Position numbers and translations under genes: made by a program. The notes below the pieces were generated by a model, which saw only the letters and a list, made by a program, of their open reading frames with translations, did no database searches and was not told where the DNA came from. 64,000 bases of DNA from Octopus sinensis (taxonomy: Eukaryota). The stretch spans positions 13,144,001-13,208,000 of the forward strand of contig NC_043010.1 of NCBI RefSeq assembly GCF_006345805.1. Reading direction: 5' to 3'. Positions within the stretch are counted from its first letter, which is position 1. Every line of letters begins with the position of its first letter. Shown here piece after piece: positions 869 through 55,365 of this stretch.

Positions 869-1951
869 TGCATTCTAGGGTGAAGCCTCAGCTCAGGAAT
901 GTGGAGTTAGCTCCTAGTTACCACTTCTCCCAGATCTACTCATTCCTGTGGTGGTGTTATGGGTCAAATAACAGAAGATGATCCTGTGAGTAAGGCAATG
1001 CATGACTCAAAAAAAGAATGGCCCCTATGCATGTGTCTATACACAGGCCCATCTGTATGTGGAAATGCCTTGATTCCATGTGAACCAGTTCCCCTGCCTA
1101 TGGATTAGATAGGCCCTGTGTGCCAAGGGTAAACTTGAGAGAACAAGAGACAAAAGGTGTAAACTGTAAATAAGCCAGCAGAAGTCTACCACTCCTGGAA
1201 TCTTTCTCAACAGAACTCACAAATCTTCAGATTTTAGGCTCTTGATTGTTGATGTCTGTCAGGATGGCACATGAGAAAAGAAATAATTAAAAACGTCTAC
1301 TTTATTTTTTCATAATTAAAAACTAAATTTGAATTTTTTCATTGCTGAGTTAGAAATTTTATAAATGATGAATTTTTTGAGTTTTGCAGGAATGCTTCAA
1401 CCAGCTATTTACAGACAGAACAGGGCATCTACATGATTACCTAGCCTGCTAGGAATAGCAGTCAAACCCTCCTCAAATTATGATTCATGTGGCCAACAAA
1501 GAATAACTGGGAGTTAAACTTACAGTTGTGTACAATGTGTGTGTGTGTTTGTATGTATATGTATATATGTGTGTGTGCATATGTATATGTGTATATGTAT
1601 ATATATGGAAGGGAAAATTATAAGGCAGAATGCTAAATTGAAAGTAAATTTTGATAAAAATGGGTGTATGAAAAATTAAGAAAGAAAAAATAATAAATCA
1701 AACCGGTTTTCATTGCAAGGTAAATTTTCAAGATTTGGAAGGGGGAAAATTTTTTTTTTTAAACTGAGGAAGGGGAAAAATAAATTTACATTTAAAATAC
1801 ATGCATCCTAACCCTCCAAAGAAGTTTTTCCAAGGACTATTCTTGAACTCTAAAAGCATAAAGACTCTACAATGGATTGGTATACTTATTAATTTTTGTA
1901 TATATGTATTATTTTTTTGAAAAAACATTGTAAATTTCTTTTTCCCCTTCC

Positions 1952-2296
1952 TCATCATCATCATCATCATCGTTTAGCGTCCGCTTTCCATGCTAGCATG
2001 GGTTAGATGGTTCAACTGGTGTCTGGGAAGCCAGAAGGCTGCACCAGGCCCAGTTTGATCTGGCAATGTTTCTACGACTGGATGCCCTTCCTAACGCCAA
2101 CCACTCCATGAGTGTAGTGGGTGCTTTTTACGTGCCACCGGACGGGGGCCAGGCGAGGCTGGCAATGGCCACGAACGGATGGTGCTTTTTACGTGCCACC
2201 GACATGAGGCCAGTCGGGGCGGTGCTGGCAACGGCCACATTCGGATGGTTCTCTTACGTGCCACCGGCACTGGTAACTCAGCTGCAATTTCCATAG
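1952..2296 (-). mobile_element. RTE-clade LINE 3' end (5'-truncated)
   Basis: (ATG)n tail and 3' UTR shared with the RT-bearing copy at 11831-13280. Near-duplicated target tttttcccc(c)ttcc on both sides. Confidence 0.8.
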
Positions 2297-2313
2297 AATT
2301 TTTCCCCCCTTCC

Positions 2314-2355
2314 AAATCTTGAAAATTTGCCTTGCCTTGAAAACCGGTTTGATTT
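2314..2355 (+). ncRNA. Minimal hammerhead-ribozyme-like motif, U3-A8 variant (mirror copy 1695-1736 on minus)
   Basis: AAATC-TTGAAAA-[stem II]-GAAAA-CCGG-TTT-GATTT. Stem I is AAATC/GATTT; stem III is the palindrome AACCGGTT. Confidence 0.55.
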
Positions 2356-2562
2356 ATTATTTTTTCTTTCTTAATTTTTCATACGCCCATTTTTATAAAA
2401 ATTTACTTTCAATTTAGCATTCTGCCTTATAATTTTTCCTTTCCTATCATTTTTCCACGTGCGGTTAACACAACCCCACTATTTACTGATTTGTATATAT
2501 ATGTATACACATATGCATATATGGATGTTTAAATATATGCATATATGCTTGCAATTTTTTAC

Positions 2563-2670
2563 CTGTTGCATTGGTAGACTTCTTGATGTACTTGAAGCAA
2601 TCCATTTATTTTGTGGTTCAAGTACAAAGTAGAATTGACTTGTTGATTCGGTCAATTGAGAATCATTGGT
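2563..2670 (-). CDS. Internal coding exon (repeat exon C); TNDSQLTESTSQFYFVLEPQNKWIASSTSRSLPMQQ
   Basis: 108 nt, phase 0-0. Acceptor ttctttccag|ACC, donor CAG|gtaaaa. Paralogous motif SQFYFVLEPQNKW. Confidence 0.85.
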
Positions 2671-2802
2671 CTGGAAAGAAAAATAAGAAGAAAAAACAAA
2701 TATGATGAGAAGGTTAAGAAACCACTTCTAAAAGAGAGCAATGTCAAATACATTTCATGGTACAAATCATCATAAAATATATATATACAAAATTTTTGTA
2801 TA

Positions 2803-3150
2803 CTAGCACTATATATATAGTGCTAGTGCATGCATATACAGCTGCGTGCGTGCGCATATGCACGTGAGTGCTGTCCAAATCTCTGACCAATCACATACAA
2901 CTAGCTGGCATTCAATTGGCGTATCAAGTTTCGGGCATTTTGATTGGGTTTTGGATAGAAAATTCATAAAAAAGTCACTTCTATTGAATTTTTAATGGCT
3001 TTGCGGGGTGACTGGGGAAATGTAAAGATGTGCACGACCACCCTTGGATGGTTTTGAATGACCATAGAAAGTGCAGCCCACTAACTGAAAAATTGTGGAT
3101 TTGTATAAAGGACACACACACAGACATTTTGCCGTTTATATATATAGAGA
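2803..3150 (-). mobile_element. Non-autonomous Helitron
   Basis: Minus strand A|TCTCTATATATATAAA..TGTCTGTG ... CTAG|T: TC and CTAG termini in an AT target, no TSD. Terminal palindrome ctagcactatatatatagtgctag. Confidence 0.6.
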
Positions 3151-3324
3151 TATGTTTTGATTACAATAGGTCCCTATTTCCTTATGTTGTAAGAAGTTAC
3201 TAAAAGATTGAATATTCTCATCCAACTCCAACCAGTTTATAACTTATTCTATTATACTTTTACATGTTTCATTCATTAGACTGTGGCCATGCTGGGGCAC
3301 TATCCTGTTAAAAAAAAGAAATGT

Positions 3325-4315: not shown

Positions 4316-4546
4316 TGCAAACTCACTTATGAAATCATTTGAATATTTTATTTATTAATTGGCTAGTTCCTTATTAGATCAAATGTATGTTCAGCCTCTA
4401 GGTTTTTACTCGCTAGAAAATACAACCAAATCTCCCTCGAATTAAATCCTATCATAATAAAAATATATATATTTTGGATCTTCTTCTTCTTCTTCTTCTT
4501 CATCTTCTTCTTAGGAATGAGAACCCAGGTTCGAAATTTCCCCAAG

Positions 4547-4590
4547 ACACCTGATGAAGGCTGGAGGGTATATCTGTTGAAACGTTGTGT
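4547..4590 (+). ncRNA. Minimal hammerhead-ribozyme-like motif (C3-G8) in a short Penelope-like remnant (~4480-4640)
   Basis: ACAC-CTGATGA-A-GGCTG..CTGTT-GAAAC-GTT-GTGT. Stem I ACAC/GTGT, palindromic stem III AACGTT, stem II partly decayed. Confidence 0.6.
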
Positions 4591-4944
4591 TAACAACAAA
4601 CAAGATGAGGACAAATATCCGTCAAATGTAAATAATGTATATTACAAACCTTTCCCCTATTTAACTGTTCTTGGACACTATATACCTGCTCTGTCTTAAT
4701 AATTTTGGGATCTACACTCTGACTCTCATACAGATGGTAGGTGCCAAGCCAAATACAAATGAGACATACATAACAGCTAGTTTACTTTTTAAATCTATCT
4801 CTACAGAAATAGAAATTAGAACCATCACTGGTTTCAAAGACAGAAAAATAGATAACGGATGTATACGTATATTTCAGGAATTCTGCTCCTTCTTTGGCTT
4901 CACATCCAACCCATTAACCATCTATGAACACATTGCTTAAACAA

Positions 4945-5100
4945 CCCCCACTGCATAACTGGTACTTAATTTATCGACCCCGAATGGATGAAAGGCAAAG
5001 TCGACCTCAGCAGAATTTGAACTCAGAACGTAACGCCAGACGAAATACTGCTAAGCATTTCGCATGGCGTGCTAACGTTTCTGCCAGCTCGCCGCCCTTA
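4945..5100 (-). mobile_element. SINE family D (Nin-domain-like), partial
   Basis: ctggtactt..atcgacccc..ggatgaaaggcaaagtcgac block, same as the copy at 35488-35720. Confidence 0.7.
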
Positions 5101-5267
5101 AACACACGCACCTTTAATGTAATTATCAGCACAACAAAGCATATGACAAGACAGGGCATTTTTTAATTACATGTACAATCCATCAGATGGGCTTCAGCAC
5201 AGTTTCCTGTCAACCCAATTTCACTCATAAGGCTTGAGTGAAGTTGAAGCTAAGGCAAAAGACACTT

Positions 5268-5552
5268 CATGGAGGCATATGGCCTAGTGGTTAGAGCAGC
5301 GGACTCACGGTCGAGGGATCGTGTCTTCGAATCTCAGACCGGGCAATGTGTGTGGTTATGAGCGAAACACCTAAGTTCCACGTGGCTCCGGCAGAAGGTA
5401 ATGTTGAACTTCTGCTAACTCTTTTGCCACAAACTTTCTCTCACTCTTTCCTCCTGCGATGGACCGGCGTCCCGTCCAGGTGGGGAACCTATACACCACG
5501 GAAACCAGGAAACCAGCCCTTATGAGCCAGGCATGGTTCAAGAAGAAAGAAA
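5268..5552 (+). mobile_element. tRNA-derived SINE, family B, nested in an old family-A SINE
   Basis: Highly similar to 3511-3816. 12-bp TSD caaaagacactt (5256-5267 / 5553-5564). Confidence 0.85.
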
Positions 5553-6006
5553 CAAAAGACACTTGCTAGATTTGCCACACATTGGGACTGGACCTGGATT
5601 TTCATGATTGTGAAATGAACTTTCCATCCGTTCAACTATGCAACAGCATTTGATAGATAATAAAATAATAATGAACTCACTGTATACAGTGCTCAGGTAC
5701 ACTACAACTCACCAGAAAAAGGGACCAAAACTACATGATCAGCAATATAGAATATGCACAGGAAGTAAAGAGTGAATATTCTTCCATTCTTTCATTCTTT
5801 TATTCTTTTACTTGTTTCAGTCATTTTGACTACAGCCATGCTAGAGTACCGCCTTTAGTCAAACAAATCGAACCCAAGACTTATTCTTTGTAAGCCTAGT
5901 ACTTATTCTAACAGTCTCTTTTGCTGAACCACTAAGTTACAGAAACATAAACACACCAACATCGGTTGTCAAGCGATAGTGGAGGGACAAACACAGACAT
6001 AGAAAT

Positions 6007-6048
<42 letters not shown>

Positions 6049-6150
6049 AATTTAGGGTAGCAAAAAAATTCAATAGAAATTTATCGCTACCAGCGGCCTG
6101 GTGGAAAAGAGAAAGTAGTCATCGACTAAATATATAATATCTCCCAGGTT

Positions 6151-6249
6151 TTTTACTGATGAAGTGTAACCTATGGTAGATTAGCTTAATTTAATTTAAT
6201 TAAGCTAATTTAATCATTAATGACACAGAAACGTTGCAACGTCCTAAAA
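6151..6249 (+). ncRNA. Hammerhead-ribozyme-like motif, copy 1
   Basis: TTTTA-CTGATGA-A-GTGT...ACAC-A-GAAAC-GTTGCAAC-GTC-(C)TAAAA. Confidence 0.55.
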
Positions 6250-6619
6250 GATGAATTAGGGTAAATGTTTTTAAATTTTCACCTAATTTCTGAATTACTA
6301 CTACTTGGCGGTGGGAGTTATGGCTGCTATTTCTGGTGACGAGTGACCGTTAGGGTCACTCCTAAATTGTTATATTACTATATTAGCCGATGACTACTTT
6401 CTCTTTTCCACCAGGCCGCTGGTAGCGATAAATTTATTGAATTTTTTTGCTACCCTAAATTGACTAATTGATAATTTTCTGATTAATTCTGAGATTGAAT
6501 CGGCAGTTTATATTTACTGCTGATAAGTTTGGCGCGAATACGTCAGTCTTGAAAAATTTAAGACAGATAGCCGTAGGCATCGATACAGACGCCTCGTGTA
6601 TATTTGTCTCTCCCAGGTT

Positions 6620-6715
6620 TTTTACTGATGAAGTGTAACCTATGGTGAGATTAGCTTAATTAATTTAATTAAGCTAATTAATCATTAATGGACAGAAACG
6701 TTGCAACGTCTAAAA
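6620..6715 (+). ncRNA. Hammerhead-ribozyme-like motif, copy 2
   Basis: TTTTA-CTGATGA...GAAAC-GTTGCAAC-GTC-TAAAA. Stem I TTTTA/TAAAA, 12-nt palindromic stem III ACGTTGCAACGT, GUC cleavage triplet. Confidence 0.6.
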
Positions 6716-6863
6716 GATGAATTAGGGTAAATGTTTTTAAATTTTCACCTAATTTCTAATTACTACTACTTGGCGGTGTGAGTTATGGCTGCTCTTTTGG
6801 TGGACGAGTGACCTGTTAGGGTCACTCCTAATTGTTATATATATATATATATATATATACATA

Positions 6864-11830: not shown

Positions 11831-13280
11831 CATCCTCCTCATCATCATCATCGTCATTTAACATCCGTTTTCCATGCTGGCATAGGTTGGACAGTTTGAC
11901 TGAGGTCTGGAGAGCCAGCAGCTGTGCCAGACTCCAATCTGATCTAGCAATGTTTCTATAGCTGGATTTCCCTTCCTAATGCCAACCACTCCGAGAGTGT
12001 AGTGGATGCTTTTTATGTGTCACTGGCACAGGTAGGAGCCAGTCAGGCAGGCCTGGCATCAACCAAGTTCAGATGGTGCTTTTTATGTGCCACTGGCAAT
12101 GGGAGCCAGTCAGGGGGTACTGACCACAGCTACGATATTGGCTTTACTCGATTAACTGGTCTTCTCAAGCATATCATATCGCACGACACATCAGAGGTAC
12201 TCTTAACTGGTCTGGACATGCATGGCAGCAATCTCACTTTAGATGCTATGTCTTCTCAATCACAGCATATCTCCAAAGGTCCTGGTCTCCTATCATTGCC
12301 TCTCTGATGCCCAATGTTCGAAGGTCATGCTTCACCACCTCATCCCGTGTCTTCCTGGGTCTACCTCTTCCACGGGTTCCTTTCACAGTTAGGGAGTGGC
12401 ACTTCCTCACACAGTTGTCCTCGTCCATACATAACACATGACCATACCAGTGCAGCATCTCTTTTGCACACCACATTTGATGCTTCTTATGCCCAACTTT
12501 TCTCTCAGGGCACTTACATTCTGTTGTGTATGCACACTGACATTACACATCCAGTGGATCATACTAGCTTCCTTTCTTTCAAGCCTATGTATGTCCTCAG
12601 CATTCATGGACCATTCTTTCACTGCTGTGTAGCATGGCAGTTCACACACATGCATCATACAGTCTACCTTTCATCCTGAGTGAGAGGTCCTTAGTTGCCA
12701 GCAGAGGTAGGAGCTCCCTGAACTTTGCCCAGGCTATTCTTATTGTAGCTGCTACACTCTCAGAGCAACCACCCCCACTACAGACTTGATCACCTAGGTA
12801 GTTTCTTCCTTTGGCATGTGATGGAATCTGTTTCCTGTACATCTTCATTGTTTATTGCCCCCATGAATCTGCCACACACGCAAACTATTTTCCCGGTTAA
12901 ACTTCCTTTGATATTACTGCACCTTTTATGTGTCCATAGCTTACACCAGGTACATTGTATGGAGTTTCTACCCATGCCTTTTCTACAGATTGAGCAGGGC
13001 CATCTACCTGAAGGGGATTCTGGTTTGGCAGCCTTTCTACTTACTAAGACTTTGGTTTTTGCTAGGTTGACCCTAAGGTCCTTCAATTCTAGACCTTGCT
13101 TCCACACCCTAAACTTCGTCTCTAGTTCTGGCAGTGACTTGGCTATTAGGGCAAGGTCATCAGCATAGAGGAGCTCCCAGGTGCAGCCTGTCTTGAATTT
13201 CTCTGTTATTGCTTGGAGGACTATAATGAAAAGAGGGGACTGAGGACTGATCCTTCGTGAACCCCTACTTCTACTCAGAA
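11831..13280 (-). mobile_element. 5'-truncated RTE-clade LINE with a frameshifted reverse transcriptase
   Basis: Translates to GSVLSP..ELLYADD (RT motifs), VNLAKTKVL, a Cys-rich insert CSICRKG..CTWCKLWTHKRC, and WYGHV..RGRPRKT. (ATG)n tail; several frameshifts. Confidence 0.92.
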
Positions 13281-13289
13281 TGTTGCTGT

Positions 13290-13745
13290 TGTGAGTGGTG
13301 ATGGTGGTGGCGGTGGTCGTGGTGGTGACAGCGGTTGTTGTTGTTGGTGGTGGTGGTGGTGGTGGTGGTGGTGGTAGTGATGGTGGTGTTGCTGCTGCTG
13401 CTGTAGTTACTGAAGCTCTTGTTACAACTATGATTGCTGTTATTAATTTTTACTTTGTTAGATTTTACTTTTGATGTTGTTGTTGTTGTTGCACATTATT
13501 TTTGTTATTACTGCAACCGGTGGTGTTACCAATGCTGCTGTGTTTAGGGTTACTACTACTACTACTTCTACTTCTGCAGTATGCTACCAATACTACTACT
13601 ACTACAAGCCACAACTACTATTACTACTACTATTATTACTACTACTACTACTACTACAAGCCACTACCACTACTGCTACAGCCCACCACCACCACCATCA
13701 CTACTACTATTACTTCTACTATTACGACTACCACTACTACTACTT

Positions 13746-21288: not shown

Positions 21289-21534
21289 CCAGTGAGTTTC
21301 CGCATAGTTTTGTCTGCCAAAATCCCACTCACAAGGCATTGTTTGAACCAAGGCAACAGTAAAATGCTCATCATTTCCAGAGGCATCAAACTCAGAACCA
21401 TGTAGTTGCAAATCCATCCTCTTAACCAAACAGGTGTTCCTGTACCTTTATATTTGATTAGCAAATATAAAATTCAGGTATGTAAAGTAATCAAACCCCC
21501 TAGATGTAGATGTTTGCAAATATTCTGTCTTATA

Positions 21535-21930: not shown

Positions 21931-22176
21931 TATGTTAATATGTGGACATATTAACATATTAAGCATAACATTTAAATATTCTTAGATATTTTAGGTTGTC
22001 AAAATAAACAGATTTATGTATCAGTCCATTGTATTTGATAATAGTATATGTTAGAGCAGAGATGGAGAATCTTATAATGTTGGAAGGTTGCATTGAAGTT
22101 AATTGCCATCTGAGGAATCCAAGCTTATTGTTTTACAAAATTTAAGTATTCATAAAAATTTTAACAAAATGCTAAA

Positions 22177-36536: not shown

Positions 36537-36813
36537 GGGAGAGTTTACGAAAAAAACAACAAAAGACGAAGGCAGGTGGTGTACAAAACAAACAGATGTA
36601 TTAATATAATGCTCAGGAATAGAAAAAGTCTTTTACGTTTCGAGCATACGCTCTTCTACAGAAAGGTACACAGTAAAAACAAGGAGAGAAACAAGGAGAG
36701 AAAAAAGGAGAGAAAAAAGGAGAGAGAAAAAAGGAGAGAAAAAAGGAGAGAAAAAAAGGAGAGAAAAAAGGAGAGAAAAAAGGAGAGAAACAAGGAGAAA
36801 AAAAAGGAGAGAA
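36537..36813 (-). mobile_element. Penelope-like remnant with a hammerhead-like motif (36630-36665) and a 12-bp aaggagagaaa(a/c) tandem array; related copy ~55085-55267 (+)
   Basis: Minus strand CTTT-CTGTAGA-A-GAGC-GTAT-GCTC-GAAAC-GTA-AAAG. The second copy reads CTTT-CTGTGGA-A-GAGC-ATAG-GCTC-GAAAC-ATT-AAAG at 55153-55188. Confidence 0.55.
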
Positions 36814-39907: not shown

Positions 39908-40069
39908 CAATTATAATAATAATAAATCTAGACAAATAAGTATAAGTCAATTAGTGTGTTTAAATGTTAAGCAGAACAGCAGGACAGTTTAGGCTACCTG
40001 TTGTCATCTACAGATGTGGTACACTTCCTTACGACCTACTTCAAGAACTCTGCAGTGACACTTAGGGTT

Positions 40070-40161
40070 ATAGTATTAATTAATAGTAGGAGATGGATTT
40101 TGCATTTGATTTTTTAAAAAGTCTAATACAAAATCCATCTCCTACAATTAATTAATACTAT
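40070..40161. repeat. Imperfect ~45-bp-arm palindrome next to (TA)n
   Basis: atagtattaattaatagtaggagatggattttg ... caaaatccatctcctacaattaattaatactat. Confidence 0.75.
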
Positions 40162-40164
40162 ATT

Positions 40165-40639: not shown

Positions 40640-40861
40640 TATTATTTTATAGAAGGAGCTTCTAAGGACTAGAAAACTGTTTCATTCAAAAGAAATCATC
40701 AGGATGATTTCTTTTGAATGAAACAACAGTTCTAGTCCTGTAGAAGCTCCTTCTATAAAATAAATTAATTTACTCTGCTATGTATTGAGTACCTTATTTA
40801 CTGTGGTTAACCCCGACTCAACCCGGGACCTACATATATATATATATACATATATACTATA

Positions 40862-41472: not shown

Positions 41473-42163
41473 ACACATATATATATATATATATATTTAT
41501 TTTATAGAAGGAGCTTCTACAGGACTAGAACTGTTTCATTCAAAAGAAATCATCAGGATGATTTCTTTTGAATGAAACAGTTCTAGTCCTGTAGAAGCTC
41601 CTTCTATAAAATAAATTAATTTACTCTCTGCTATGTATTGGAGTACCTTATTTACTGTGGTTAACCCCGACTCAACCCGGGACCTACATATATATATATA
41701 TAATCATATACTATATATGTGTGTGTGTGTGTATATATATATATATGTGTATGTATATGTATCTTTGTGTTTGTTTGTGTCTGTGTTTGAGGCCCCCCCC
41801 CCCCGCCAACGATTGTCAACCAATGCTGGTGTGTTTACATCCCGGTAACCTAGTGGCTTTGCAAAAGTGACTGATAGAATAAGTACAAGGCTTACAAAAA
41901 AAATAAGTCTTGGGGGTCAATTTCTTTGATTAAAACCCTTTAAGGTGGTGCTCCAGCATGGCCACAGTCAAATGGCTGAAACAAGTAACGGACCATCAAT
42001 AAGTGTTTGAGTGTATTTTTATGCAAAAGGTGCAAACAGAGTACTCAATACTCAAAAGTAGAGCTAAAAACGAAATGCAATCCAGTATACATGTACAGGA
42101 ATATGCATTCCAAAATACACACCAGGAATACGATATTAATATTGAATATTATACATAGACATG

Positions 42164-42218
<55 letters not shown>

Positions 42219-42229
42219 ACATATATATA

Positions 42230-42264
<35 letters not shown>

Positions 42265-42273
42265 CTACATATA

Positions 42274-42318
<45 letters not shown>

Positions 42319-42330
42319 ACACATATTATA
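40640..42330. repeat. ~850-bp tandem duplication (palindrome + SINE A half + unique flank)
   Basis: 40640-41470 and 41495-42330 are near-identical and differ mainly by small indels. Confidence 0.9.
41495..41616. mobile_element. Perfect 60-bp-arm palindrome (2-nt loop) with a hammerhead core at the apex; Penelope-like fold-back
   Basis: Arms 41495-41554 / 41557-41616 are exact reverse complements. Minus strand from 41556 reads CTGATGA-TTTC-TTTT-GAAT-GAAAC-AG..CT-GTA. Confidence 0.7.
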
Positions 42331-42476
42331 TATATAGAAAAGGAAACATACATAGATACATACATATATCATCATCATCATCATCATCATCGTTTAACGT
42401 CCGTTTTCCATGCTAGCATGGGTTGGACGGTTCGACCGGGGATCTGGGAAGCCAGAAGGCTGCACCAGGCTCCAGT

Positions 42477-42513
<37 letters not shown>

Positions 42514-42596
42514 ACATATATATATTGATATATATATATATAATATATTATATATATATATATATATATACCTACATATATATTATATTATATACT

Positions 42597-42627
<31 letters not shown>

Positions 42628-42637
42628 ACCGTACATA

Positions 42638-42677
<40 letters not shown>

Positions 42678-42731
42678 ACATATATATATTTATATATATA
42701 TTATATATATTAATATAATATATTATATACC

Positions 42732-42772
<41 letters not shown>

Positions 42773-42969
42773 ACATATAATATTTATAATATATATATAT
42801 AGCTATATATATATACCTTACATATATATATTTATATATATATATATATTATATTTATATATATATATATTTATATATATAATATATTTATATAGAAGAG
42901 GAAAGAAAGAAAACAGAAAAGAAAAACAGAAAAAAGAGATAAAAAGAATAAGACAAAGACTATAGTAAA

Positions 42970-43001
<32 letters not shown>

Positions 43002-43007
43002 AATATG

Positions 43008-43040
<33 letters not shown>

Positions 43041-43154
43041 ATATATAATAAAAGATCAAAGCATTTTTGAAAGAATGAAGGAAAGTGAAAGCATTTCAAG
43101 AGAACATATGGAAGATGTTGGAAAGGTTGAAGGAAAGATGCTGAATCTGGAGAA

Positions 43155-43550
43155 GTGTGCGTGTGTGCATGTGTGTGTGTGTGTGCGTGTGTGTGTGTGA
43201 GTGTGTGTATGTGTGCGGGCATGCGTGCGTGTGTGCGTGTGTGTGTGTGCGTGCGTGTTTGTGTGTGTGTGAGTGTGTGATGTGTGCGGGCATGCGGGTG
43301 TGGGCATGTGTGTGTGTGCGTGGTGTGTTGTGTGTGTGTGTGAGTGTGTGTATGTGTGCGGGCATGCGTGCGTGTGTGCATGTGTGTGTGTGCGTGCGTG
43401 TGTGTGTGTGTGTGTGAGTGTGTGTATGTGTGCGGGCATGCGTGCGTGTGTGCATGTGTGGTGTGTGCGTGCGTGTGTGTGTGTGTTGTGAGTGTGTGTA
43501 TGTGTGCGGGCATGCGTGCGTGTGTGCGTGTGTGTGTGTGTGTGTGTTTG
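43155..43550. repeat. (GT/GC)n tract with a repeated gtatgtgtgcgggcatgcgtgcgtgtgtgc higher-order unit
   Basis: The gcgggcatgcg marker recurs five times. Confidence 0.85.
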
Positions 43551-44184
43551 TGGCACTGAAGAAATATAAGGAATATGTCAAAAGATGAAGGAGACAATAT
43601 TGGAAACGAGGTGGGGGGGTCGAGGGGGGGAATGGAAAGAAGAAATTGGTGGGGTGGGGTGGGAGGAAGACGAGGTGGTGGTGTTGTAGGATAGGTGGGA
43701 GGGTGGGGGTGAAGATTTGCTGCAAAATGGTGATGGGTGGGGGTGGGGGGATAATTGACATAAAAAAATAGAGAGTAAATGGAGAGGAGACTAAAAGGAG
43801 GAAGGAGGGGGCTGGGGGGGGGTTAGATTAAATATGGTGATGGAGGGGGGTAGTGGGTTTGAGTGGGGTGGGTGGGGTATTGAAAAGGTAGGAGTGGCAG
43901 GGCAGCAATAGGTTATGGAATGAGAGAAGGGAGCAGAACAAGGAGAAAATTAAGTATATGATAGGGGGAGCTGGGGAGATGGTGGTGGTGGTGGTGGTGG
44001 TGGAGGCGGTGGTGGTGGTGGTGGTGGTGGTGGTGGTGGAGTTGGTGGTGATGCTGATGCTGATGCTGCTTGTGGTGGTTGTGGTGACGGTAGTGATGCT
44101 GGTGGTTGTGGTGGTGGTGGTGGTGGTGGTGGTGGTGATGCTGGAATAGGCAATGATGATTATGATAGTGATGTTGATTGTTGC

Positions 44185-44217
<33 letters not shown>

Positions 44218-44512
44218 ACCCCAGGATATCAGTATCATCATCCCCGATCAAGCAGAGCTATATGATGAAAAAGGCATTCCAGCAGTGGCCATTCCATCTT
44301 TTTTTATTTGTATTTTTATTTTTATTTTTATTTTCACCCCCCCCCCGCATGCGCACAGAAACCCAGATCTACGGATATCCAACATGTTTCTTTTTCTGAG
44401 GTAGCGAGGATATGATTTTGAGAGAAGAATTTCTCTCTACTATTTCTTGCAGATCGTGCAACCGTGTAGAAGCCTCCCCACATTGGTTCGTTGGAAATGC
44501 TGGTGTTGATTG

Positions 44513-44547
<35 letters not shown>

Positions 44548-44799
44548 CTGATGATGATAAGGGACGATAGTAGTAGAAGAGGTATCTTCGCTGTTGTTGT
44601 TGTTCTTGTTGCTATTGTGAGATGGCTGTAGATGAAGTTGTAGTAATGCTAGTATCGGTGGCGGTGGTGGTGGTGGTGGTGGTGGTGGTGGTGGCGGTGG
44701 TGGTGGTTGAAGCGGGGGTGGGGGTGGGGGTGGGGGGATTGCAATGGACTTAAAAGTGTAATCCTTCAGTGTTGTTTAAAGGACAGAAGAATTTGGTTA

Positions 44800-47700
44800 G
44801 AAATCAATTCATAATAAAGACAAAGAGAGAGAGAGAGAAGATTGGCGGGTGGGGGTGGGGGCGGTTGTGGAGAATAAGAAGAGGAAGAAAAAGAAGGAGG
44901 AGGAAGAGGAAGGGGAGGAGGAGAGGTGGGAGGAAGGGGAGGAGGAGGAATGATGGGAAATAGGAAAAAATATGAAGGAGGGGAAAAGGGAAGAGGAAGG
45001 AGAGAGACAGATTAAGCAAGACATTTGGAAGAGTAAGGAGGAAGAAAATGAGGGCAAAATAGGATAGAAATGGAGGAAGGAAGAAGGGGGGGCGAAGAGA
45101 ATGAAGAAGAAAGGAAAAAAGAGGGAAACGTTGAAGAAAATGAGTGTGGAAGAAAAGGAAGACGAAAAGATAAGAAATGGAGAGATTGAGAATATAGGAG
45201 AGAATATAAGAGAGGAAGGATAAAAAGGAGAGAGATAGAAGGCAGAAGAAAATGAGTGGGGACAGAGAGAGAGAGAGGGAGAGAGAGAGGGGAGAGGATG
45301 AAGAAGAAAAGGATTAGAATATAGAGCAAAAAAAAACCAGAGGAAAGTGAGAAAAATCAATGGTAAAGAAAGAGACATAGGAAAGAAGAATGAGGAAGAA
45401 AAAATAATGAGAATTAAAATAAAACGAGGGGAGGGGAATAAATAAGCCACATAAAAACCCAATAAATATATAAAGGAGAGAAAGAAAACACGGAGGATGA
45501 AATTGTGGGACAGAGAGAAGGAGAGAGAGAGAGAGAGGGGGGTAAAGAAAAGGGAGGTGAAGAGAAAGGATAAGAGATGGGAGAGTAAGGGGAGAGAAAG
45601 GATAAGAAATTGGAGAGTAAGGGGAGAGAAAGGAGAAGAGATAGGAGAGAAAGGGGAGAGAAAGGATAAGAGATGGGAGAGTAAGGGGAGAGAAAGGATA
45701 AGAGATGGGAGAGTAATGAGAGAGAAAGGATAAGAGATGGGAGAGTAAGGGGAGAGAAAGGATAAGAGATGGGAGAGTAAGGGGAGAGAAAGGATAAGAG
45801 ATTGGAGAGTAAGGGGGGGAGAAATGGAGAGTAGATTTGAGAGGAGAGGCTGGTTGTGAGGAAGTGAGGAAGAGGTGAAGAGTGTATGTGAAAACTGAAT
45901 GAAAGCCAGATAGCAAATGAATGTTATTATAGGAGCTGCATTGCTACAAACAGACATATAACAAGGGGTGGTGGGATTGTATGTGGGGGGGGGTAGATGA
46001 GGATGGAGTGAAAGAAGAGAGGGTGGAGGAGGTTTGAGAGGGAGGTAGAGAGAGTAGGAATAAATGGAGACATTGAGAGAAATTGAGAGAAAGAGTAACA
46101 GGGACAGAGAGAGGGAAGGAGAAGAGAGTGAGAGAATGAGAGAGTAAGAAAGAGTAAATCAGAGAATGAAAACAGTATGAGAACAGTAGGTGGGAGAGAA
46201 AAGAAAGATTGGAGAGATAGGAGAGAAAGAAGAGATGGGAGAGAAAGGAGAGATGGAGAGAAAGGAAATGGAGAGAAGGAGAGATGGGAGAGAAAGGAGG
46301 GATGGGAGAGAAAGGAGAGATAGGAGAGATGGGAGAGAAAGTGAGAGATTGTAGGAGAGAGGGTTAGTTAAAGTGAATGAAGGAGAGAAAGTGACAGAGA
46401 GAGAGAGAGAAAGAGAGAGAGGAGGGGTAATGGAGAGAAAGAGAGACAACAAAAAAGAGAGAGTAACAGAGAGAAAGATGGAGGAGAGTAAGAGATTCAG
46501 GGAGAGAGGGACAGCTAGAGCTAGTGAGAGAAAGTGACAGAGTAAGAGAGAATAAGCAAAGAGAAAGAGAGACAATAAAGGAGAGAGAGGGAGAGGGAGA
46601 GAGAGAGGGAGAGGATGAAGAAGAAAAGGATTAGAATATAGAGCAAAAAAAAACCAGAGGAAAGTGAGAAAAATCAATGGTAAAGAAAGAGACATAGGAA
46701 AGAAGAATGAGGAAGAAAAAATAATGAGAATTAAAATAAAACGAGGGGAGGGGAATAAATAAGCCACATAAAAACCCAATAAATATATAAAGGAGAGGAT
46801 GAAATTGTGGGACAGAGAGAAGGAGAGAGAGAGAGAGAGAGGGGGGTAAAGAAAAGGGAGGTGAAGAGAAAGGATAAGAGATTGGAGAGTAAGGGGAGAG
46901 AAAGGATAAGAAATTGGAGAGTAATTGGAGAGAAAGGAGGAGAGATAGGAGAGTAAGGGGAGAGAAAGGATAAGAGATGGGAGAGTAAGGGGAGAGAAAG
47001 GATAAGGGATGGGAGAGTAATGAGAGAGAAAGGATAAGAGATGGGAGAGTAAGGGGAGAGAAAGGATAAGAGATGGGAGAGTAAGGGGAGAGAAAGGATA
47101 AGAGATTGGAGAGTAAGGGGGGAGAAATGGAGAGTAGATTTGAGAGGAGAGGCTGGTTGTGAGGAAGTGAGGAAGAGGTGAAGAGTGTATGTGAAAACTG
47201 AATGAAAGCCAGATAGCAAATGAATGTTATTATAGGAGCTGCATTGCTACAAACAGACATATAACAAGGGGTGGTGGGATTGTATGTGGGGGAGTAGATG
47301 AGGATGGAGTGAAAGAAAGAGAGGTGGAGGAAGGTTTGAGAGGGAGGTAGAGAGAGTAGGAATAAATGGGAGACATTGAGAGAAATTGAGAGAAAGAGTA
47401 ACAGGGACAGAGAGAGGGAAGGAGAAGAGAGTGAGAGAATGAGAGAGTAAGAAAGAGTAAATCAGAGAATGAAAACAGTATGAGAACAGTAGGTGGGAGA
47501 GAAAAGAAAGATTGGAGAGATAGGAGAGAAAGAAGAGATGGGAGAGAAAGGAGAGATGGAGAGAAAGGAAAGATGGAGAGAAAGGAGAGATGGGAGAGAA
47601 AGGAGAGATAGGAGAGATGGGAGAGAAAGTGAGAGATTGTAGGAGAGAGGGTTAGTTAAAGTGAATGAAGGAGAGAAAGTGACAGAGAGAGAGAGAGAAA

Positions 47701-48045
47701 GAGAGAGAGGAGGGGTAATGGAGAGAAAGAGAGACAACAAAAAAGAGAGAGTAACAGAGAGAAAGATGGAGGAGAGTAAGAGATTCAGGGAGAGAGGGAC
47801 AGCTAGAGCTAGTGAGAGAAAGTGACAGAGTAAGAGAGAATAAGCAAAGAGAAAGAGAGACAATAAAGGAGAGAGAGGGAAGGGAGAGAGAGAGAGAGAG
47901 AGAGAGAGGAAACAAGAAAGACAGAATAAGATGGAGAAAGAGAGAGCGAGAGTGAGAAATAGGAGAGAGGGAATGAATAAATGAGAGAAGGACAGATAAT
48001 GAGAGAGAGAGAGAGAGAGAGAGAGTTAGAGAAAGAAAGAGAGAT
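44800..48045. repeat. ~3.2-kb polypurine (GA-rich) tract containing a ~1.3-kb tandem duplication and ~33-bp minisatellite units
   Basis: ~45285-46605 is repeated at ~46605-47880; unit aaggataagagatgggagagtaaggggagaga. Confidence 0.9.
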
Positions 48046-48106
48046 TTATTTTCAAGGTCATTGAATAAACTGTACACTTCAGCTGCCAACTTGCAAAAAA
48101 GTTTAC

Positions 48107-48196
48107 CATGCACAGCTGCAATCTAATTCACAAGTTGTAACCCTATCATTTGTAGATAAATCTGTGAAATTTCTGATGGTGACTGATGTCTGACCA
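48107..48196 (-). CDS. Candidate coding exon; (C)GQTSVTIRNFTDLSTNDRVTTCELDCSCA(W)
   Basis: 90 nt, phase 2-2 (the only open frame). Acceptor tcctatgtag|T, donor TG|gtaaac. Island of complex sequence between a GA-rich tract and a GATA microsatellite. Confidence 0.5.
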
Positions 48197-48202
48197 CTAC
48201 AT

Positions 48203-48229
48203 AGGATAGATAGATAGATAGATAGATAG

Positions 48230-48281
<52 letters not shown>

Positions 48282-48310
48282 GGATGGATAGATGGATGGA
48301 TGGATGGATG

Positions 48311-48349
<39 letters not shown>

Positions 48350-48374
48350 TGACAGATAGACAGACAGACAGATC

Positions 48375-48425
<51 letters not shown>

Positions 48426-48435
48426 GTAGATAGAC

Positions 48436-48510
<75 letters not shown>

Positions 48511-48591
48511 CAGACAGAAAGATAGATAAATAGATAGATAGATAGATAGATAGATAGACAGACAGAAAGATAGATAGATAGATATACAGAC

Positions 48592-48637
<46 letters not shown>

Positions 48638-48666
48638 GTAGATAGATAGATCGACAGACAGACAGT

Positions 48667-48714
<48 letters not shown>

Positions 48715-48715
48715 C

Positions 48716-48778
<63 letters not shown>

Positions 48779-48820
48779 CAGACAGAAAGATAGATAGATA
48801 GATATACAGACAGACAGACA

Positions 48821-48851
<31 letters not shown>

Positions 48852-48925
48852 CATACATACATACATACATACATAGGTGGAATATGGATCGATAGATAGA
48901 TAGATAGATAGATTGACAGATAGAT
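48203..48925. repeat. (GATA)n microsatellite with GACA/GATG variants
   Basis: Direct inspection; source of the SIYL-repeat ORFs. Confidence 0.95.
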
Positions 48926-49369
48926 GTCCAATAACCAAACCCTTGGTTGTTGGTGTTCTTGGTGGTGGTGGTGGTGGTGGAGATAACAGTAGGAATGGTG
49001 GTGCTGCTGCTGATTGTAGGGACACTGACTGTAATGGTGATGGTCATGGTGAGAATGTGGTGGAGAAGGATGAGAGGAGGAGGAGGAGGGCACTGATGAT
49101 AATTATGATGATGCGCAAAATATTGATGGAAGAGCGTGGTGGCAATGATGGTGGTTGTGGTGGTGGTGGGTGGTGATGGTGGTGGCGATGGTGGTGGTGA
49201 TTACGATGATGACGACGATGTTGAGGATGAGTAGAAGGACGGGGATAACAATGATGATGATGATCATCATCATCATCATCATAATCATTATCACCCACTG
49301 TATGATGAGGAAGAGTGAGAAGCAGGACGATGAGGAGGAATAAAAAGAAGTGGATAATGTTGTTATTGG

Positions 49370-49715
49370 TGGCAGCGGCGGTGGTGGCGGTGGTGGTGGT
49401 GGTGGTGGTAGTGGTGGTGGTGGCGAAGGCGGTGGCGTGGTGGTGGGTGGTGGTGGTGGTGGTTGATGGTGGTGGTGGTGGTGATGGTGGTGGTGGCGGT
49501 GGTGGTAGTGGTGGTGGTGGCGAAGGCGGTGGCGTGGTGGTGGTGGTGTGGTGGTGGTGGTGGTTGATGGTGGTGGTGGTGGTGATGGTGGTGGTGGCGG
49601 TGGTGGTGGCGGTAGTGGTGGTGGTGGTGGTGGTGTCTCAGAATGCAGATGGCTTTTCTTTTTATGAAGAATAAAAAGGAGGATGCTAATAATTTTTTTT
49701 ACAACTGAGTAAAGT

Positions 49716-49751
<36 letters not shown>

Positions 49752-50455
49752 TAAGAGAGAAAGAGGGGGAGAGTGAGAGGGAAGGAGAATGGAGAAGTTA
49801 ATATATGAAAGAGAAAGAATTAGGCTGGCTGGCTGGCAGGCTGGTCGGTTGGTTGGTTGGTGGTTGGTTGGTTGGTTGGAGGGCTCGCCAGTAGGTAGAT
49901 ACATGGGTAGGTAGATAGGCCATTAGATAGGTAGGTACAATTGTAGGTGAGTGAATAAGCAGGTGGGACGGTAAGTAGGCAGGTAGGTAGGTAGGTAGGA
50001 AGGTACGGAGGTTGGTAGGTAGGTAGGTAGGTAGGTAGGTAGGTAGGAAGGAAGGTACATAGGTGGTAGGTAGGTAGGTAGGTAAGTAGATAGGTAGGTA
50101 GGTAGGTAGGTAGGTAGGTAGGTAGGTAGGTAGGTAGATATGTAGGTAAGTACATAGGTAAGCACATATGTAGGTATGCAGCTAGATAGGTAGATTGGTG
50201 GTAGGTACATACAATTGTTAGGTACATAGGTGAGTAGCTAACCAGACAGGTAGGCAGGTAAACAGATAGGTACATAGGTTAGTAGATAGGTAGATAGATA
50301 TATTGGCATATATGTAGATAGGTAAATAGGTAAATGGAAAAATAGGCAGAAAAGTAAATGGGTAGATTTGTAGAAAGATAAGTAGGTAAACAGACCAATA
50401 GGTATGTTGATAAATAGGAAGATAGGGAGGTATATAGACAGGTAAGTAGGTAAAT

Positions 50456-50460
<5 letters not shown>
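49370..50460. repeat. (GGT)n, (GA)n and degenerate (GGTA)n microsatellites
   Basis: Direct inspection. Confidence 0.9.
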
Positions 50461-50500
<40 letters not shown>

Positions 50501-50543
50501 TATCCATACAAAGCCTATTTAATTAAAAATGTTTATGTGGAGA

Positions 50544-51125
50544 GGAGGTGCATGGCTTAGTGGTTAGGGTGTCAGCATCATGATCGCAAGATTGTGGTTT
50601 CGGTTCCTGAACCGGGTGACGCGTTGTGTTCTTGAGCAAAACACTTCATTTCACATTGCTCCAGTCCACTGAGCTGGCAAAAACAAGTAACGCTGCGATA
50701 GACTGGCGTCTCGTCCAGCTGGGGAACACATACGCTATGGAAACCAGGAACCTGGGCCCATCAGCCTGGCTAGGCTTTAAAAGGGCGCATTTAGTATATA
50801 TATATATGTATATACACATACATACTTACAAATATATACATATATATATATGCGTGTGTGTGTGGAGGTGCGTGGCTTAGTGGTTAGGGTGTCAGCATCA
50901 TGATCGCAAGATTGTGGTTTCGATTCCTGGACCGGGCGACGCGTTGTGTTCTTGAGTAAAACACTTCATTTCACGTTGCTCCTGTCCTCTCAGCTGGCAA
51001 AAATGAGCAACGCTGTGATGGACTGGCATCTCATCCAGCTGGGGAACACATACGTCACTGAAATCGAGAAACCGGGCTCATGAGCCTGGTTAGGCTTTAA
51101 AAGGGCGCATTTATTATTTTTTTTA
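50544..51125 (+). mobile_element. Tandem dimer of family-C SINEs (50544-50793 and 50863-51115)
   Basis: Two complete copies separated by a TA/TG tract. One outer 15-bp direct repeat tttatgtggagagga (50532-50546 / 51126-51140). Confidence 0.85.
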
Positions 51126-51861: not shown

Positions 51862-52475
51862 GTGTGCAAAGAGCTATGCTACATGGCAGTGAAACATGGT
51901 CTGTGACGGCCAAGGACATGCATAGGCTTAAAAGAAATGAAGCCAGTATGCTTAGCTGGATGTGCAATGTCAGTGTACATGTTCGATAGTGTGCAAGAGA
52001 GAGACGACTGCACTGGTATGGTTATGTGATGCATAAGGACAAGGACAGCTGTGTGAAGACGTGCTGATCTCTAACTGTGGAAGGCACCTGTGGTAGAGGT
52101 AGACCCAGGAAGACATGGGACAAGGTGGTGAGGCATGGTCTTCAAACTTTGGGTTTCACAGAGGTAATGATTAGCAACTGAGATCTTTGGCGATTTGCTG
52201 TGCTTGAGAAGACCTGTCAAGCCAAGTGAAATCATAGTCGTGACAGATGCTGGTGTCATGTAACTGGCACCTGTGCCAGTGGCACGTAAGGAGCACCTTT
52301 CAAGCATTGGGCCTCATGGAGGCAAAGTGGCTGAGTTTTCCTTTCGAGTGTTGGGCCTCTTGGAGCCAGTGAGCAAGACCTTTGGCATTATGTCGTGCTT
52401 CAGAAGAAGACCCCCCTCAAACCGAGCAAAATCCCAGTCATGGCAGATGCCGGTGTCACACAAATGGCACCTGTA
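51862..52475 (+). mobile_element. RTE-clade LINE fragment
   Basis: [45 protein letters not shown]. Confidence 0.85.
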
Positions 52476-52843
52476 CCAAGAGAAACACATCAGTGTCACC
52501 TCACAACAACAGCTCAACAAACAATGCCTTATATTGCTGCATATTGACATCTACAGGGAAAATAGATAGATAGATAGATAAACTTACACACACCACACAC
52601 ACATATATATATATACATACATATTTTACATATATACATATGTCTGCCTTTGTATATGTGTTTATGTACATCTTTAGGCAACTTTTTGTTTTATAAGACC
52701 ATGGATCTTAACCTGGAAAATCTTGTTTCAATCTGAGCTGATGGGACAGCGTCTATTTTCCCTGTAGATGTCAATACGCAGCAATATAAGGCATTGTTTG
52801 TTGAGCTGTTGTTGTGAGGTGACACTGATGTGTTTCTCTTGGT
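52475..52843. repeat. ~92-bp inverted duplication (52475-52566 / 52752-52843) of a probable degenerate Penelope endonuclease segment
   Basis: Arms are near-exact reverse complements. Adjacent minus-strand YTC..PYLGEQKRPVQGR loosely resembles a GIY-YIG YIGET.R motif. Confidence 0.5.
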
Positions 52844-53262
52844 TTCCACCCCAGATAATGTCGTATGGAAGGCTTGCAATTGACTATGCAGTAGATCTCC
52901 CTTGTACAGGACGCTTTTGTTCTCCAAGATAAGGTGTTCTAAGTAGCTTGGCACAAGGGCTGTGGCAAGTGTAATCAGAATGTAATGTATATGTATGTAT
53001 CTATGTGTAAGCCGTTGCTTTTTGAATGTTTTTGAATGTTGTGGTTCATGTATTCACCGGATGAAAACGGCTTTTTTCTAATGAGGTAATGTCTTCATTA
53101 ATCAATTAAAATTTCGTTGGAAACAGCTGTAGTGACTTGTCACGTTATCCATTTGTTGTTATTTATTCATTTATCTATGTATGTATATATATATATGTAT
53201 GTATAAGATACATTTATACAAGCAATGCATATGTGCATATATATATATATATGTATATATAT

Positions 53263-53597
53263 TCGGTTGTGTCTGGGGAGAGTCATTTTCTTTTTGTGCC
53301 TTATTATTTAACACATTCACCAGTAAAATTTCCACTTATTTCTTATTTTTATTTTCCTAAAATTTTCGTTGCATCTTGTAACCTTTTCAATAGTTTTGAG
53401 TTTAATCTGTCGAAAAGGTTGCAAGACACAACGAAAATTTTGGGAAAATAAAAATAAGAAAAAAGTGGAAATTTTACCGGTGATTGTGTTAAATAATAAG
53501 GCACAAAAAGAAAATGACTCTCCCTGGACACAACAGAATATGCTTCAACACACGAACTCATATAAAGAATCTTGCAAACCAATTCCAAGAACGAAAT
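53263..53597. mobile_element. Penelope-like fold-back (arms ~53263-53393 / 53407-53538 plus tail) with a U3-A8 hammerhead-like motif
   Basis: Minus 53393-53357 reads CTA-TTGAAAA-G-GTTAC-AAGAT-GCAAC-GAAA-ATTT-TAG. Confidence 0.6.
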
Positions 53598-53613
53598 ATA
53601 TATATATATAAAC

Positions 53614-53965
53614 AATTGCATCGTGGAAGGTGTTTATAAGCCATTTAAGAAACGCAAAAACTGTTAGATTCACTTCAACATTTAATTTTAATTTGCCAAA
53701 ATATTTTCGTCGCTTTGAGACCGCGACCGGTTCACTGACGAAATTCCATGCTGCACAGAATTTTATAAGTGAACAGGTCAGTGAACAGGTTATGCTCTCA
53801 AAGCAACAAAAATATTTTGGCAAATTAAATTTAAATGTTGAAGTGAATCTAACGGTTTTTGTGTGTTTCTTAAATGGCTTATAAACACCTTCCACACTGC
53901 AATGATTTTCGTTCCAGCACACAATCTCAGATTAGATCACTTGCTATGCAAGTACATCTCCGTAA
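53614..53965. mobile_element. Penelope-like fold-back (arms ~53615-53739 / 53777-53902 plus tail) with a G3-C8 hammerhead-like motif
   Basis: Arm consensus GTCA-GTGAACA-G-GTCGC..GCGAC-GAAAA-TA-TTT-TGGC. Confidence 0.6.
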
Positions 53966-54740
53966 TATATATATATATGTGTGTATATGTGAGCACATGT
54001 ATGTGTAGATATATGTGTTTGAATTGCACACATATGTAAAATTAGCTACAGATATAAATACACAGACATTAGGTATACATAAAATTAAGAAACTGCGTTA
54101 TCAGTTGTGGCAATGCAGTAAGTAACCATTTCTTTCGGAGAATATGAATTCACATTGATTGACTGATATTATTTGAAGTATGAACAGCAAAATCTGTTAA
54201 AGCCAAGAGCCAGATCAAAGAGTAAAATGTTTTCACACTGATGATATTACCAGCAGCAGGCTTATGATGAGTGAAAATCCTACTCCAAGCTTTATTCTAC
54301 ATGTGAAATATGCTAAATCTATAATTATTTTAGAATAATTTTCATTGTAATCTAGTCTGTAAAATCTTATAATCTATTCTAGCATAATATCCTTTAATCA
54401 TATGTAGCACATCAACTCAAGATTTGTCTTTCGAATGTTCAGCTTTCTATATCTCTTGCTATAATTCCTTCAATTGTCATGTCCAAATTTTGTCTTTACG
54501 TTCAGCTTAATCCAAAACACATGTTAGTAGTAACTCTTTATAAAGCTATTGTTGTCATATTAAGAATAGCAATGGGCTAGTTATATTTAATCAATACAAG
54601 CTAACCCTTTGACAGCAAGCTAATCAATTAAAAAAAAAAAACATTAAGTCCGACTGAAAAATCTTCTTTTAACATAGATTTGTAGTACTCAAGTGGAAGG
54701 ATTTGTAAACATTAATAATTTCACCATAATGATAGTTATA

Positions 54741-54782
<42 letters not shown>

Positions 54783-55365
54783 ATTATTATCTCTTATGCA
54801 AAGCCAGAAATCCGGGATCTGGAATTATCCAGTAATTTTTTGCTAGTTTATTTTCTCTCTTTGTCTTCTCTCCTAGAGCTATATGAACATTTAATATGGT
54901 TTTAGAGTCAAGTTTTGACTGGTATTTTCAGTGTGGTGGTATCTCTTAGATACCCTAAATTATAATTTTAAATTATTATTACCATTGAAAGATTTTTTAT
55001 TCCCATGCTGGCCACTTGATAAGATCGAAATTTTAATATCGATCTTATCCTTATTTATAAAAAAATATATATATATATATATGCCATTCGACATGATAGA
55101 TTGCTATCCACTACACTTTCTTTATTTTTTCTCCCTGTTTCTATTTGTGTTCCTTTCTGTGGAAGAGCATAGGCTCGAAACATTAAAGACTTTTTCACTT
55201 CCTGAGCGTTAAACTAATAAATCTGTTTGTTGTCTACACCACCTGTCTTCAACTTTTGTATTCTCCCTATATATATATATATGTATCTACATGTATATAA
55301 ATATATACACACATATATATACACACACACACATATATATGTGTGTGTGCGTGTGTATAATTTGG

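Follow-up and report, generated by a model that had tools for sequence, protein, structure and literature searches.

The analysis described here concerns a stretch of 64,000 nt of Octopus sinensis DNA (contig NC_043010.1, positions 13,144,001 to 13,208,000, hereafter the window, with positions counted from its first letter), in which hammerhead-like motifs recur in several unrelated fold-back repeats. With a probability of about 0.85, these motifs are minimal type I hammerhead ribozymes derived from the pseudo-long terminal repeats (pLTRs) of several families of Penelope-like elements (PLEs). We favor a pLTR origin because the motif features match those described for PLEs (PMC4209133), the insertions have the corresponding layout, Watson–Crick pairs are enriched between core positions 3 and 8, and the letters of other copies of two families, E and F, move toward the hammerhead fold. 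By sequence inspection, CTGATGA cores lie at 4551, 6156, 6625, and 41556(-), TTGAAAA cores at 2319, 1731(-), and 53390(-), and a GTGAACA core at 53781. All the core heptamers listed in an earlier, sequence-only reading of the window are thus present, although most copies are damaged and not each is a complete fold; most window copies are probably inactive. Self-comparison of the window places the sites in six families, A (1731/2319), B (4551), C (6156/6625), D (40702/41556), E (53390/53410), and F (53735/53781), plus a seventh, G (55157/36661(-)). Mirror copies are two arms of one insertion and not independent cases, so that the eight cores named earlier (nine with the G3-C8 mirror) reduce to six families. 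The features of families E, F, and G are as follows.

53259..53595: fold-back of family E between (TA)n flanks; its arms span 53259-53541 (89%) and its tail 53542-53595
53357..53393, minus strand: family E hammerhead; U3-A8 (53390), stem I of 3 bp, one stem II mismatch
53406..53444, plus strand: family E mirror; U3-A8 (53410), reading TCGAAAA, U4 lost
53615..53964: fold-back of family F between (TA)n flanks; its arms span 53615-53903 (81%) and its tail 53904-53964
53692..53742, minus strand: family F hammerhead; G3-C8 (G3 53735, C8 53730), stem II of 5 bp, stem III AATATT
53777..53821, plus strand: family F mirror; G3-C8 (53781), G12 lost (53808), one stem II mismatch
36630..36665, minus strand: family G hammerhead-like motif; C3-G8 (C3 36661), U at position 6, stems I and II of 4 bp, stem III ACGT
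55153..55188, plus strand: family G motif; C3-G8 (C3 55157), U at position 6, stem III palindrome decayed (ACAT)

Evidence on the folds comes from other copies of families E and F, for which four of 24 listed public runs (three sets of DNA contigs and one raw RNA run) were aligned to 53262-53910 at 80% likeness. From 21,375 to 36,146 contigs aligned per contig run, and E and F are therefore high-copy repeats, this depth being no measure of copy number. Among the 40 of 199 difference rows listed, 15 fall inside the four E and F motifs, 4 of them common only in the RNA run. The other 11 stand at 44–99% in run X1, and all but one of them either restore a core base (A9 at 53729, 99%; U4 at 53411, 82%; G12 at 53808, 78%) or restore or strengthen a stem pair (seven rows: 53379, 53409, 53428, 53442, 53696, 53740, and 53820). 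The changes at 53696/53820 and 53740 lengthen stem I of family F from the 4 bp of the window copy 53692..53742(-) to 7 bp with the majority letters, and the stem II mismatch of 53357..53393(-) is absent from other E copies. The majority letters of both families hold the full type I core, whereas the window copies 53410, 53735, and 53781 fail it. Since the letters of these copies restore both core bases and stems, the descent of the motifs from real hammerhead folds, as proposed in the sequence-only reading, is borne out, and the family letters of E and F keep the stems and the 3-8 pair. Two details of that reading are not sustained by the window copies of F: the core at 53781 is followed by AAAA and not GAAA, and its mirror reads GTGAACC, with C for A9 (53729), and not an intact GTGAACA.

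The same alignment bears on the identity of the 3-8 pair. Each DNA run has one G>C place, 53400 in all three, and a C3-G8 form of family F, which needs G>C at 53730 or 53781, is therefore below 8% in these runs; G3-C8 is thus the family state of F in the three DNA runs. A C-G to U-A change between the two F arms may be explained by CpG decay and is not counted as compensatory. About 6% of raw RNA run X23 was covered, and its 2,505 aligned reads lay in both directions without a pile-up of ends, which in an ordinary cDNA library is a weak test and no evidence either way on cleavage. Reads of X23, which comes from another organism, run on past the family F motif at 53777 into upstream sequence; there, a pyrimidine tract that closes with CAG some 17 nt from stem I resembles a 3' splice site. 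In Drosophila virilis, the introns of PLE pLTRs end close to stem I (PMC4209133). A search with the family F pattern gave no match in the genome contigs and viral contigs searched and one in metagenome contigs, which lies inside bacterial-looking coding DNA and is taken as chance. Family G has the core CUGUNGA, U6 being present in both copies, which are 84% alike and each followed by about 85 nt and then (TA)n; its end at 55188 coincides with the last coordinate of the sequence-only reading, in which the family itself was undescribed.

Across the window, core bases U4, G5, A6, N7, A9, G12, A13, A14, A15.1-U16.1, and H17 are intact in single copies of families A, B, C (6625), and E(-), whereas family G fails the type I core at position 6. 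A Watson–Crick 3-8 pair is present in all seven families. Stems I to III are complete in B, C, F, G, and E (the last with a stem I of 3 bp), and incomplete in A (weak stem II) and D (stem I missing). An extra nucleotide between A9 and stem II is combined with palindromic 15.2-16.2 in A, B, C, E, F, and G; in D the extra base after A9 is present and the even palindrome absent. G10.1-C11.1 occurs in B, E, F, and G. A relaxed minimal-hammerhead descriptor gives 4 matches in the window. The features of families A to D are as follows.

1603..2493: insertion of family A, bordered on each side by (TA)n; the arms 1603-1749 and 2301-2447 (94%) lie head to head with other repeats in between, and the tail 2448-2493 is one-sided
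1695..1736, minus strand: U3-A8 hammerhead of family A (U3 at 1731); stem I of 5 bp, stem III AACCGGTT, stem II of at most 3 bp with an unpaired U on each side
2314..2355, plus strand: U3-A8 hammerhead of family A (U3 at 2319) with a decayed stem II
4546..4591, plus strand: family B minimal hammerhead, one copy in the window; C3-G8 (4551), stem I of 5 bp, stem III ACGT, one stem II mismatch
6044..6840, plus strand: family C, bordered on each side by (TA)n; the direct units 6140-6375 and 6609-6840 (95%) are 469 nt apart, and the inverted arms are 6044-6140 and 6372-6466
6149..6251, plus strand: first hammerhead copy of family C; C3-G8 (6156), with a single additional C at the cleavage site
6617..6717, plus strand: family C hammerhead copy 2; C3-G8 (6625), stem I of 7-8 bp, C17
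40642..40833: first fold-back copy of family D; the arms span 40642-40763 and the tail runs to 40833; its core, 40702(-), lacks the stem I 5' strand
41495..41687: second fold-back copy of family D; the arms span 41495-41616 and the tail runs to 41687; its core, 41556(-), is C3-G8

The most complete copy in the window is the second of family C (6625). Its stem III is a 12-nt palindrome, ACGTTGCAACGT, followed by C17 and stem I, and the AACGTT assigned to it previously was misplaced. Stem II of family C (6632-6694) is 63 nt long and contains a perfect AT-rich hairpin; forcing the hammerhead fold at 6625 costs 4.8 kcal/mol above the minimum. A further hammerhead-like stretch at 6515-6550, between the two family C units, is degenerate (CTGATAA ... 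GAATACGTC) and has decayed too far to be called. The assertion that a stem II follows each core likewise went too far, as this stem is absent or only 2–3 bp at 2319, 1731(-), and 41556(-); it has a mismatch at 4551 and 53390(-). The core at 41556(-) begins at the center of the palindrome, where the inversion occurs, and consequently lacks the 5' strand of stem I. The two family D copies are 95% alike, 850 bp apart, and share an identical junction, as in a local duplication or an assembly echo.

The chance level was set with local dinucleotide shuffles of the window; in all descriptors, which were written post hoc, once the motifs had been seen, core positions 3 and 8 were left free, and mirror arms count double in the figures that follow. 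The simple combination of core, stem II, and GAAA occurs 19 times versus 16.7 ± 4.2 in 200 shuffles. Three pairing states in 64 kb are therefore no evidence by themselves, and the argument once drawn from them for the reality of the folds is not supported. A Watson–Crick 3-8 pair occurs in 10 of the 19 matches versus 4.1 ± 2.1 in the shuffles. When a stem I of at least 4 bp and a palindromic stem III are added, with one deviation allowed, the scan gives 5 matches versus a mean of 2.0 and a maximum of 6 in 100 shuffles; all 5 have a Watson–Crick 3-8 pair, versus 31% in the shuffles, and no shuffle has 5 such matches. With a stem I of at least 3 bp, the figures are 9 of 10 versus 27%, with none of 100 shuffles reaching 9; three of these nine Watson–Crick matches are regarded as chance. 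With an exact core, a stem I of at least 5 bp, and no condition on stem II beyond a limit of 110 nt, 4 of 4 matches are Watson–Crick, which none of 200 shuffles equals, a single one giving 4 matches of any kind; with a stem I of at least 4 bp, the count is 4 of 5. With the arms collapsed, the two stricter scans comprise six families (A, B, C, E, F, and G), all Watson–Crick.

These controls also define how far the motifs might be chance look-alikes in AT-rich fold-back repeats such as miniature inverted-repeat transposable elements (MITEs), chosen for pairing at 3-8. Such a reading could appeal to the equal frequency of the simple motif in shuffles, to the total of 5 relaxed matches lying within the shuffle range, to the post hoc descriptors, to the near absence of stem II from families A and D, and to the single matches at 52204, 37630, and 24609(-), which do resemble chance. 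It would have to accommodate, however, the Watson–Crick counts with stems I and III, which lie beyond all shuffles, the shift of 10 of the 11 common differences in E and F toward the hammerhead fold, by which chance is already largely refuted for these two families, and the one-sided tail with arms joined by little or no spacer, which is PLE-like and not MITE-like. We regard it as very improbable. Several candidates were set aside in the course of the scans. The U3-A8-like match at 52204 belongs to a frequent repeat and is not conserved in the 6 copies aligned; 37630 (GTGAACA, with a G-A change in GAAA and a 3-bp stem I) and 24609/24612(-) are single weak matches not counted as real. The first descriptor, with no stem II mismatch, gave one match, 24609(-), ascribed to chance, and allowing two core deviations gave 11 matches, of which 10 are noise.

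The layout of the insertions also recalls PLEs. All five fold-backs measured (A, D twice, E, and F) consist of (TA)n, an inverted arm, a direct arm placed head to head, a tail of 46–71 nt on the direct arm only, and (TA)n again. PLE insertions are described with an inverted 5'-truncated copy, head-to-head palindromic junctions, and a 30–40 bp tail at one end (PMC8557442, PMC3846280), and hammerhead pairs on opposite strands lie 100–700 bp apart (PMC4209133); because the layout of A, D, E, and F matches these descriptions, the mirror copies are products of insertion. The hammerheads might instead belong to non-autonomous non-LTR retrozymes, tandem units of 170–400 nt that spread via circular RNA, rather than to PLE pLTRs proper. 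Family C, with two direct units 469 nt apart and no open reading frame between them, lends itself to this reading, and the two classes intergrade, as retrozymes are traced back to PLE pLTRs in a 2026 preprint (10.64898/2026.07.22.740005). Against it, A, D, E, and F are arranged head to head, B and G are solo, and C, with its period of 469 nt, is the only direct pair; moreover, retrozymes carry canonical type I hammerheads with loop 1–loop 2 contacts, whereas the minimal type is tied to PLEs and Terminons (PMC7229834). A retrozyme origin is accordingly improbable.

Several observations weigh against the assignment to PLE hammerheads and must be set beside it. A strict minimal-hammerhead descriptor (stem I of at least 3 bp, stem II of at least 4 bp without mismatch, exact core) finds no window copy. 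Rfam hammerhead models are absent from the 10 matches in 4400-6830 and the 35 matches in 53330-53850 at E ≤ 10, and also from the best 150 of 372 matches in the whole window; the matches obtained are microRNA-like noise from (TA)n and fold-backs, and Rfam is presumably a weak test, as its models were not built for minimal PLE forms. The tails of the fold-backs are longer than the published 30–40 bp. In a transcript spanning a whole fold-back, the core is predicted to lie fully paired within the long hairpin, with a probability of about 1 at most core positions (A, E, and F). A two-molecule hammerhead fold of 4 window copies lies 6–19 kcal/mol above the cofold minimum, a figure that is uninformative for decayed copies. 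A Pfam scan of 140 low-repeat frames of at least 70 aa in the window detected no remnant of a PLE reverse transcriptase or GIY-YIG domain, as expected for 5'-truncated copies, and the PLE origin is inferred with no open reading frame linked to the motifs. Fold-backs at 30487-30672 and 40069-40162, next to (TA)n, contain no hammerhead motif, possibly being PLE ends truncated below the ribozyme. The majority change at 53373 removes the last stem II pair of family E (6 to 5 bp). Finally, with 40 of the 199 difference rows listed, a minority C3-G8 form of E may exist, as may one of F in the RNA run, which has 4 unlisted G>C places.

The sole RVT_1 match of the window, 12793-13449(-) (E 2.3e-5), is at least 6 kb from any motif and reads like a long interspersed nuclear element (LINE); this LINE-type reverse transcriptase remnant is decayed and includes a cysteine motif of C1/PHD-like type. 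Sequence just downstream of it is similar to the frequent repeat around 52170-52270. The long stretch at 42000-51000 contains long open frames and a GC skew that is extreme, reaching 0.85; it is probably a simple-sequence satellite.

In the predicted history of these insertions, the window copies would be short, 5'-truncated, decaying pLTR fragments, mostly left in (TA)n as a head-to-head pair, inverted copy first, then the direct copy with its tail. The hammerhead of the parent elements most likely released the element RNA from a tandem or read-through transcript by cutting after nucleotide 17, presumably in a dimer formed via the palindromic stem III and probably aided by the element's protein. 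The 3-8 pair would have stayed Watson–Crick while its identity drifted between families (C-G, U-A, and G-C), and the window copies would now be dead debris decaying at the catalytic positions. We consider it fairly probable that the G3-C8 parent cleaves; it is possible, at somewhat short of even odds, that the lineage holds high-copy PLE families with working cores unrecorded in nature, G3-C8 in F and U6 in G.

The step from fold to catalysis is the one at which a different reading deserves weight, namely that the folds are real and PLE-derived but that the G3-C8 and U6 families now serve as a protein-binding or dimerization signal and no longer cut. This is compatible with the PLE origin and differs from the scheme above only in function. 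In the Anolis PLE, hammerhead mutants leave insertion in vitro unchanged, and no RNA-seq reads end at the cut site (PMC11167929); a natural A6C hammerhead cleaves at a rate of <0.1 per minute (PMC3088659), and PLE minimal hammerheads cleave weakly in vitro, with no monomer and low dimer cleavage (PMC4209133). On the other hand, the majority letters of E and F retain what matters for catalysis (G12, A9, U4, and the 3-8 pair), and we therefore hold the loss of cutting to be unlikely, if clearly less so than the other alternatives.

Minimal PLE hammerheads are a known class, of which the window families are new members. That they form an uncatalogued one, as had been suggested, is not supported, for such hammerheads are already described in PMC4209133 and an octopus member is given in PMC8557442 (File S2). 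What is possibly new, relative to the literature searched, is the well-supported G3-C8 state of the high-copy family F and the less tested U6 variant of the two-copy family G. In that literature, which did not extend to Lunse et al. 2017, Arkhipova et al. 2017, and Hammann et al. 2012, G3-C8 was met only in engineered cases. Lunse, Weinberg, and Breaker (2017) reportedly deal, by their title, with small dimer-cleaving PLE hammerheads; that work may well hold G3-C8 or U6 cores and is where the claim of novelty is least secure. With a high-copy G3-C8 family from nature, the natural covariation of the catalytic 3-8 pair would be complete, and such a family would argue that PLE hammerheads remain under selection for the active fold, a question left open so far because cleavage is dispensable for insertion in vitro (PMC11167929). 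The covariation described in the sequence-only reading is one between unrelated families and not within an alignment of homologues. If the picture is true, the spread of G3-C8 would be a natural test of the view that PLEs select the 3-8 pair and not base identity. PLE hammerheads would then be undercounted, CUGANGA descriptors being blind to both the G3-C8 and the U6 cores, and some PLEs reported without a canonical hammerhead may carry variants. The expectation that CUGANGA searches miss G3-C8 is correct, because both published descriptors examined (PMC4209133, PMC8557442) use that string; in ribozyme and repeat annotation, positions 3, 6, and 8 should be left free and a long stem II permitted.

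The window families are worth comparing with the systems to which they are closest. The minimal hammerheads found in PLE pLTRs across animals (PMC4209133) share with them the type I topology, the extra base between 9 and 10.1, the G10.1-C11.1 pair (in B, E, F, and G), a short stem I (3–5 bp), the palindromic 15.2-16.2 of stem III, dispersed truncated copies, opposite-strand pairs, and the U3-A8 variant, for which about 1,300 matches are given in Schistosoma mansoni. Unlike the window, the text consulted and the 56-row alignment of that study show neither a G3-C8 nor a U6 core, and the alignment contains no cephalopod; the 63-nt stem II of family C is far beyond its descriptor (stem 3–7 bp, loop 3–10). 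The hammerheads of Hydra-clade PLEs, which insert in (TA)n and include an Octopus bimaculoides member (Craig et al. 2021, PMC8557442, Files S1 and S2), resemble the window in their (TA)n targets and inverted 5'-truncated copies, and families A, C, and D in particular in the unpaired base on each side of stem II and the longer palindromic stem III; all File S2 rows have a CUGANGA core, unlike the window variants. Comparison of 9 short window-family strings with the supplement of that paper, where line breaks can hide matches, gave only an 8-mer match in an unrelated sequence, so that no window family is identified as an element listed there, and the idea that the motifs correspond to the 3' termini of the published Naiad or Hydra consensus sequences from octopus was dropped for want of a string match, subject to the same line breaks. 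In Octopus vulgaris, 31 recently active PLE families are reported in a paper whose main text has no mention of hammerhead or ribozyme (PMC13282606). Short palindromic stem III, PLE association, and cleavage as dimers are the marks of the small PLE hammerheads reviewed in PMC6765202, and the palindromic stem III is like that of the window families. Natural variants compiled by Perreault et al. 2011 (PMC3088659) share with the window the U3-A8 covariation and a change at position 6; in the part of that work consulted they include no G3-C8 or A6U, A6C being the sole natural position-6 change found. G3-C8 is mentioned as an engineered form in PMC3884650, and in the Anolis PLE hammerhead, which needs the protein for cleavage, a single C3G or G8C mutation kills cleavage while the double mutant partly restores it (PMC11167929).

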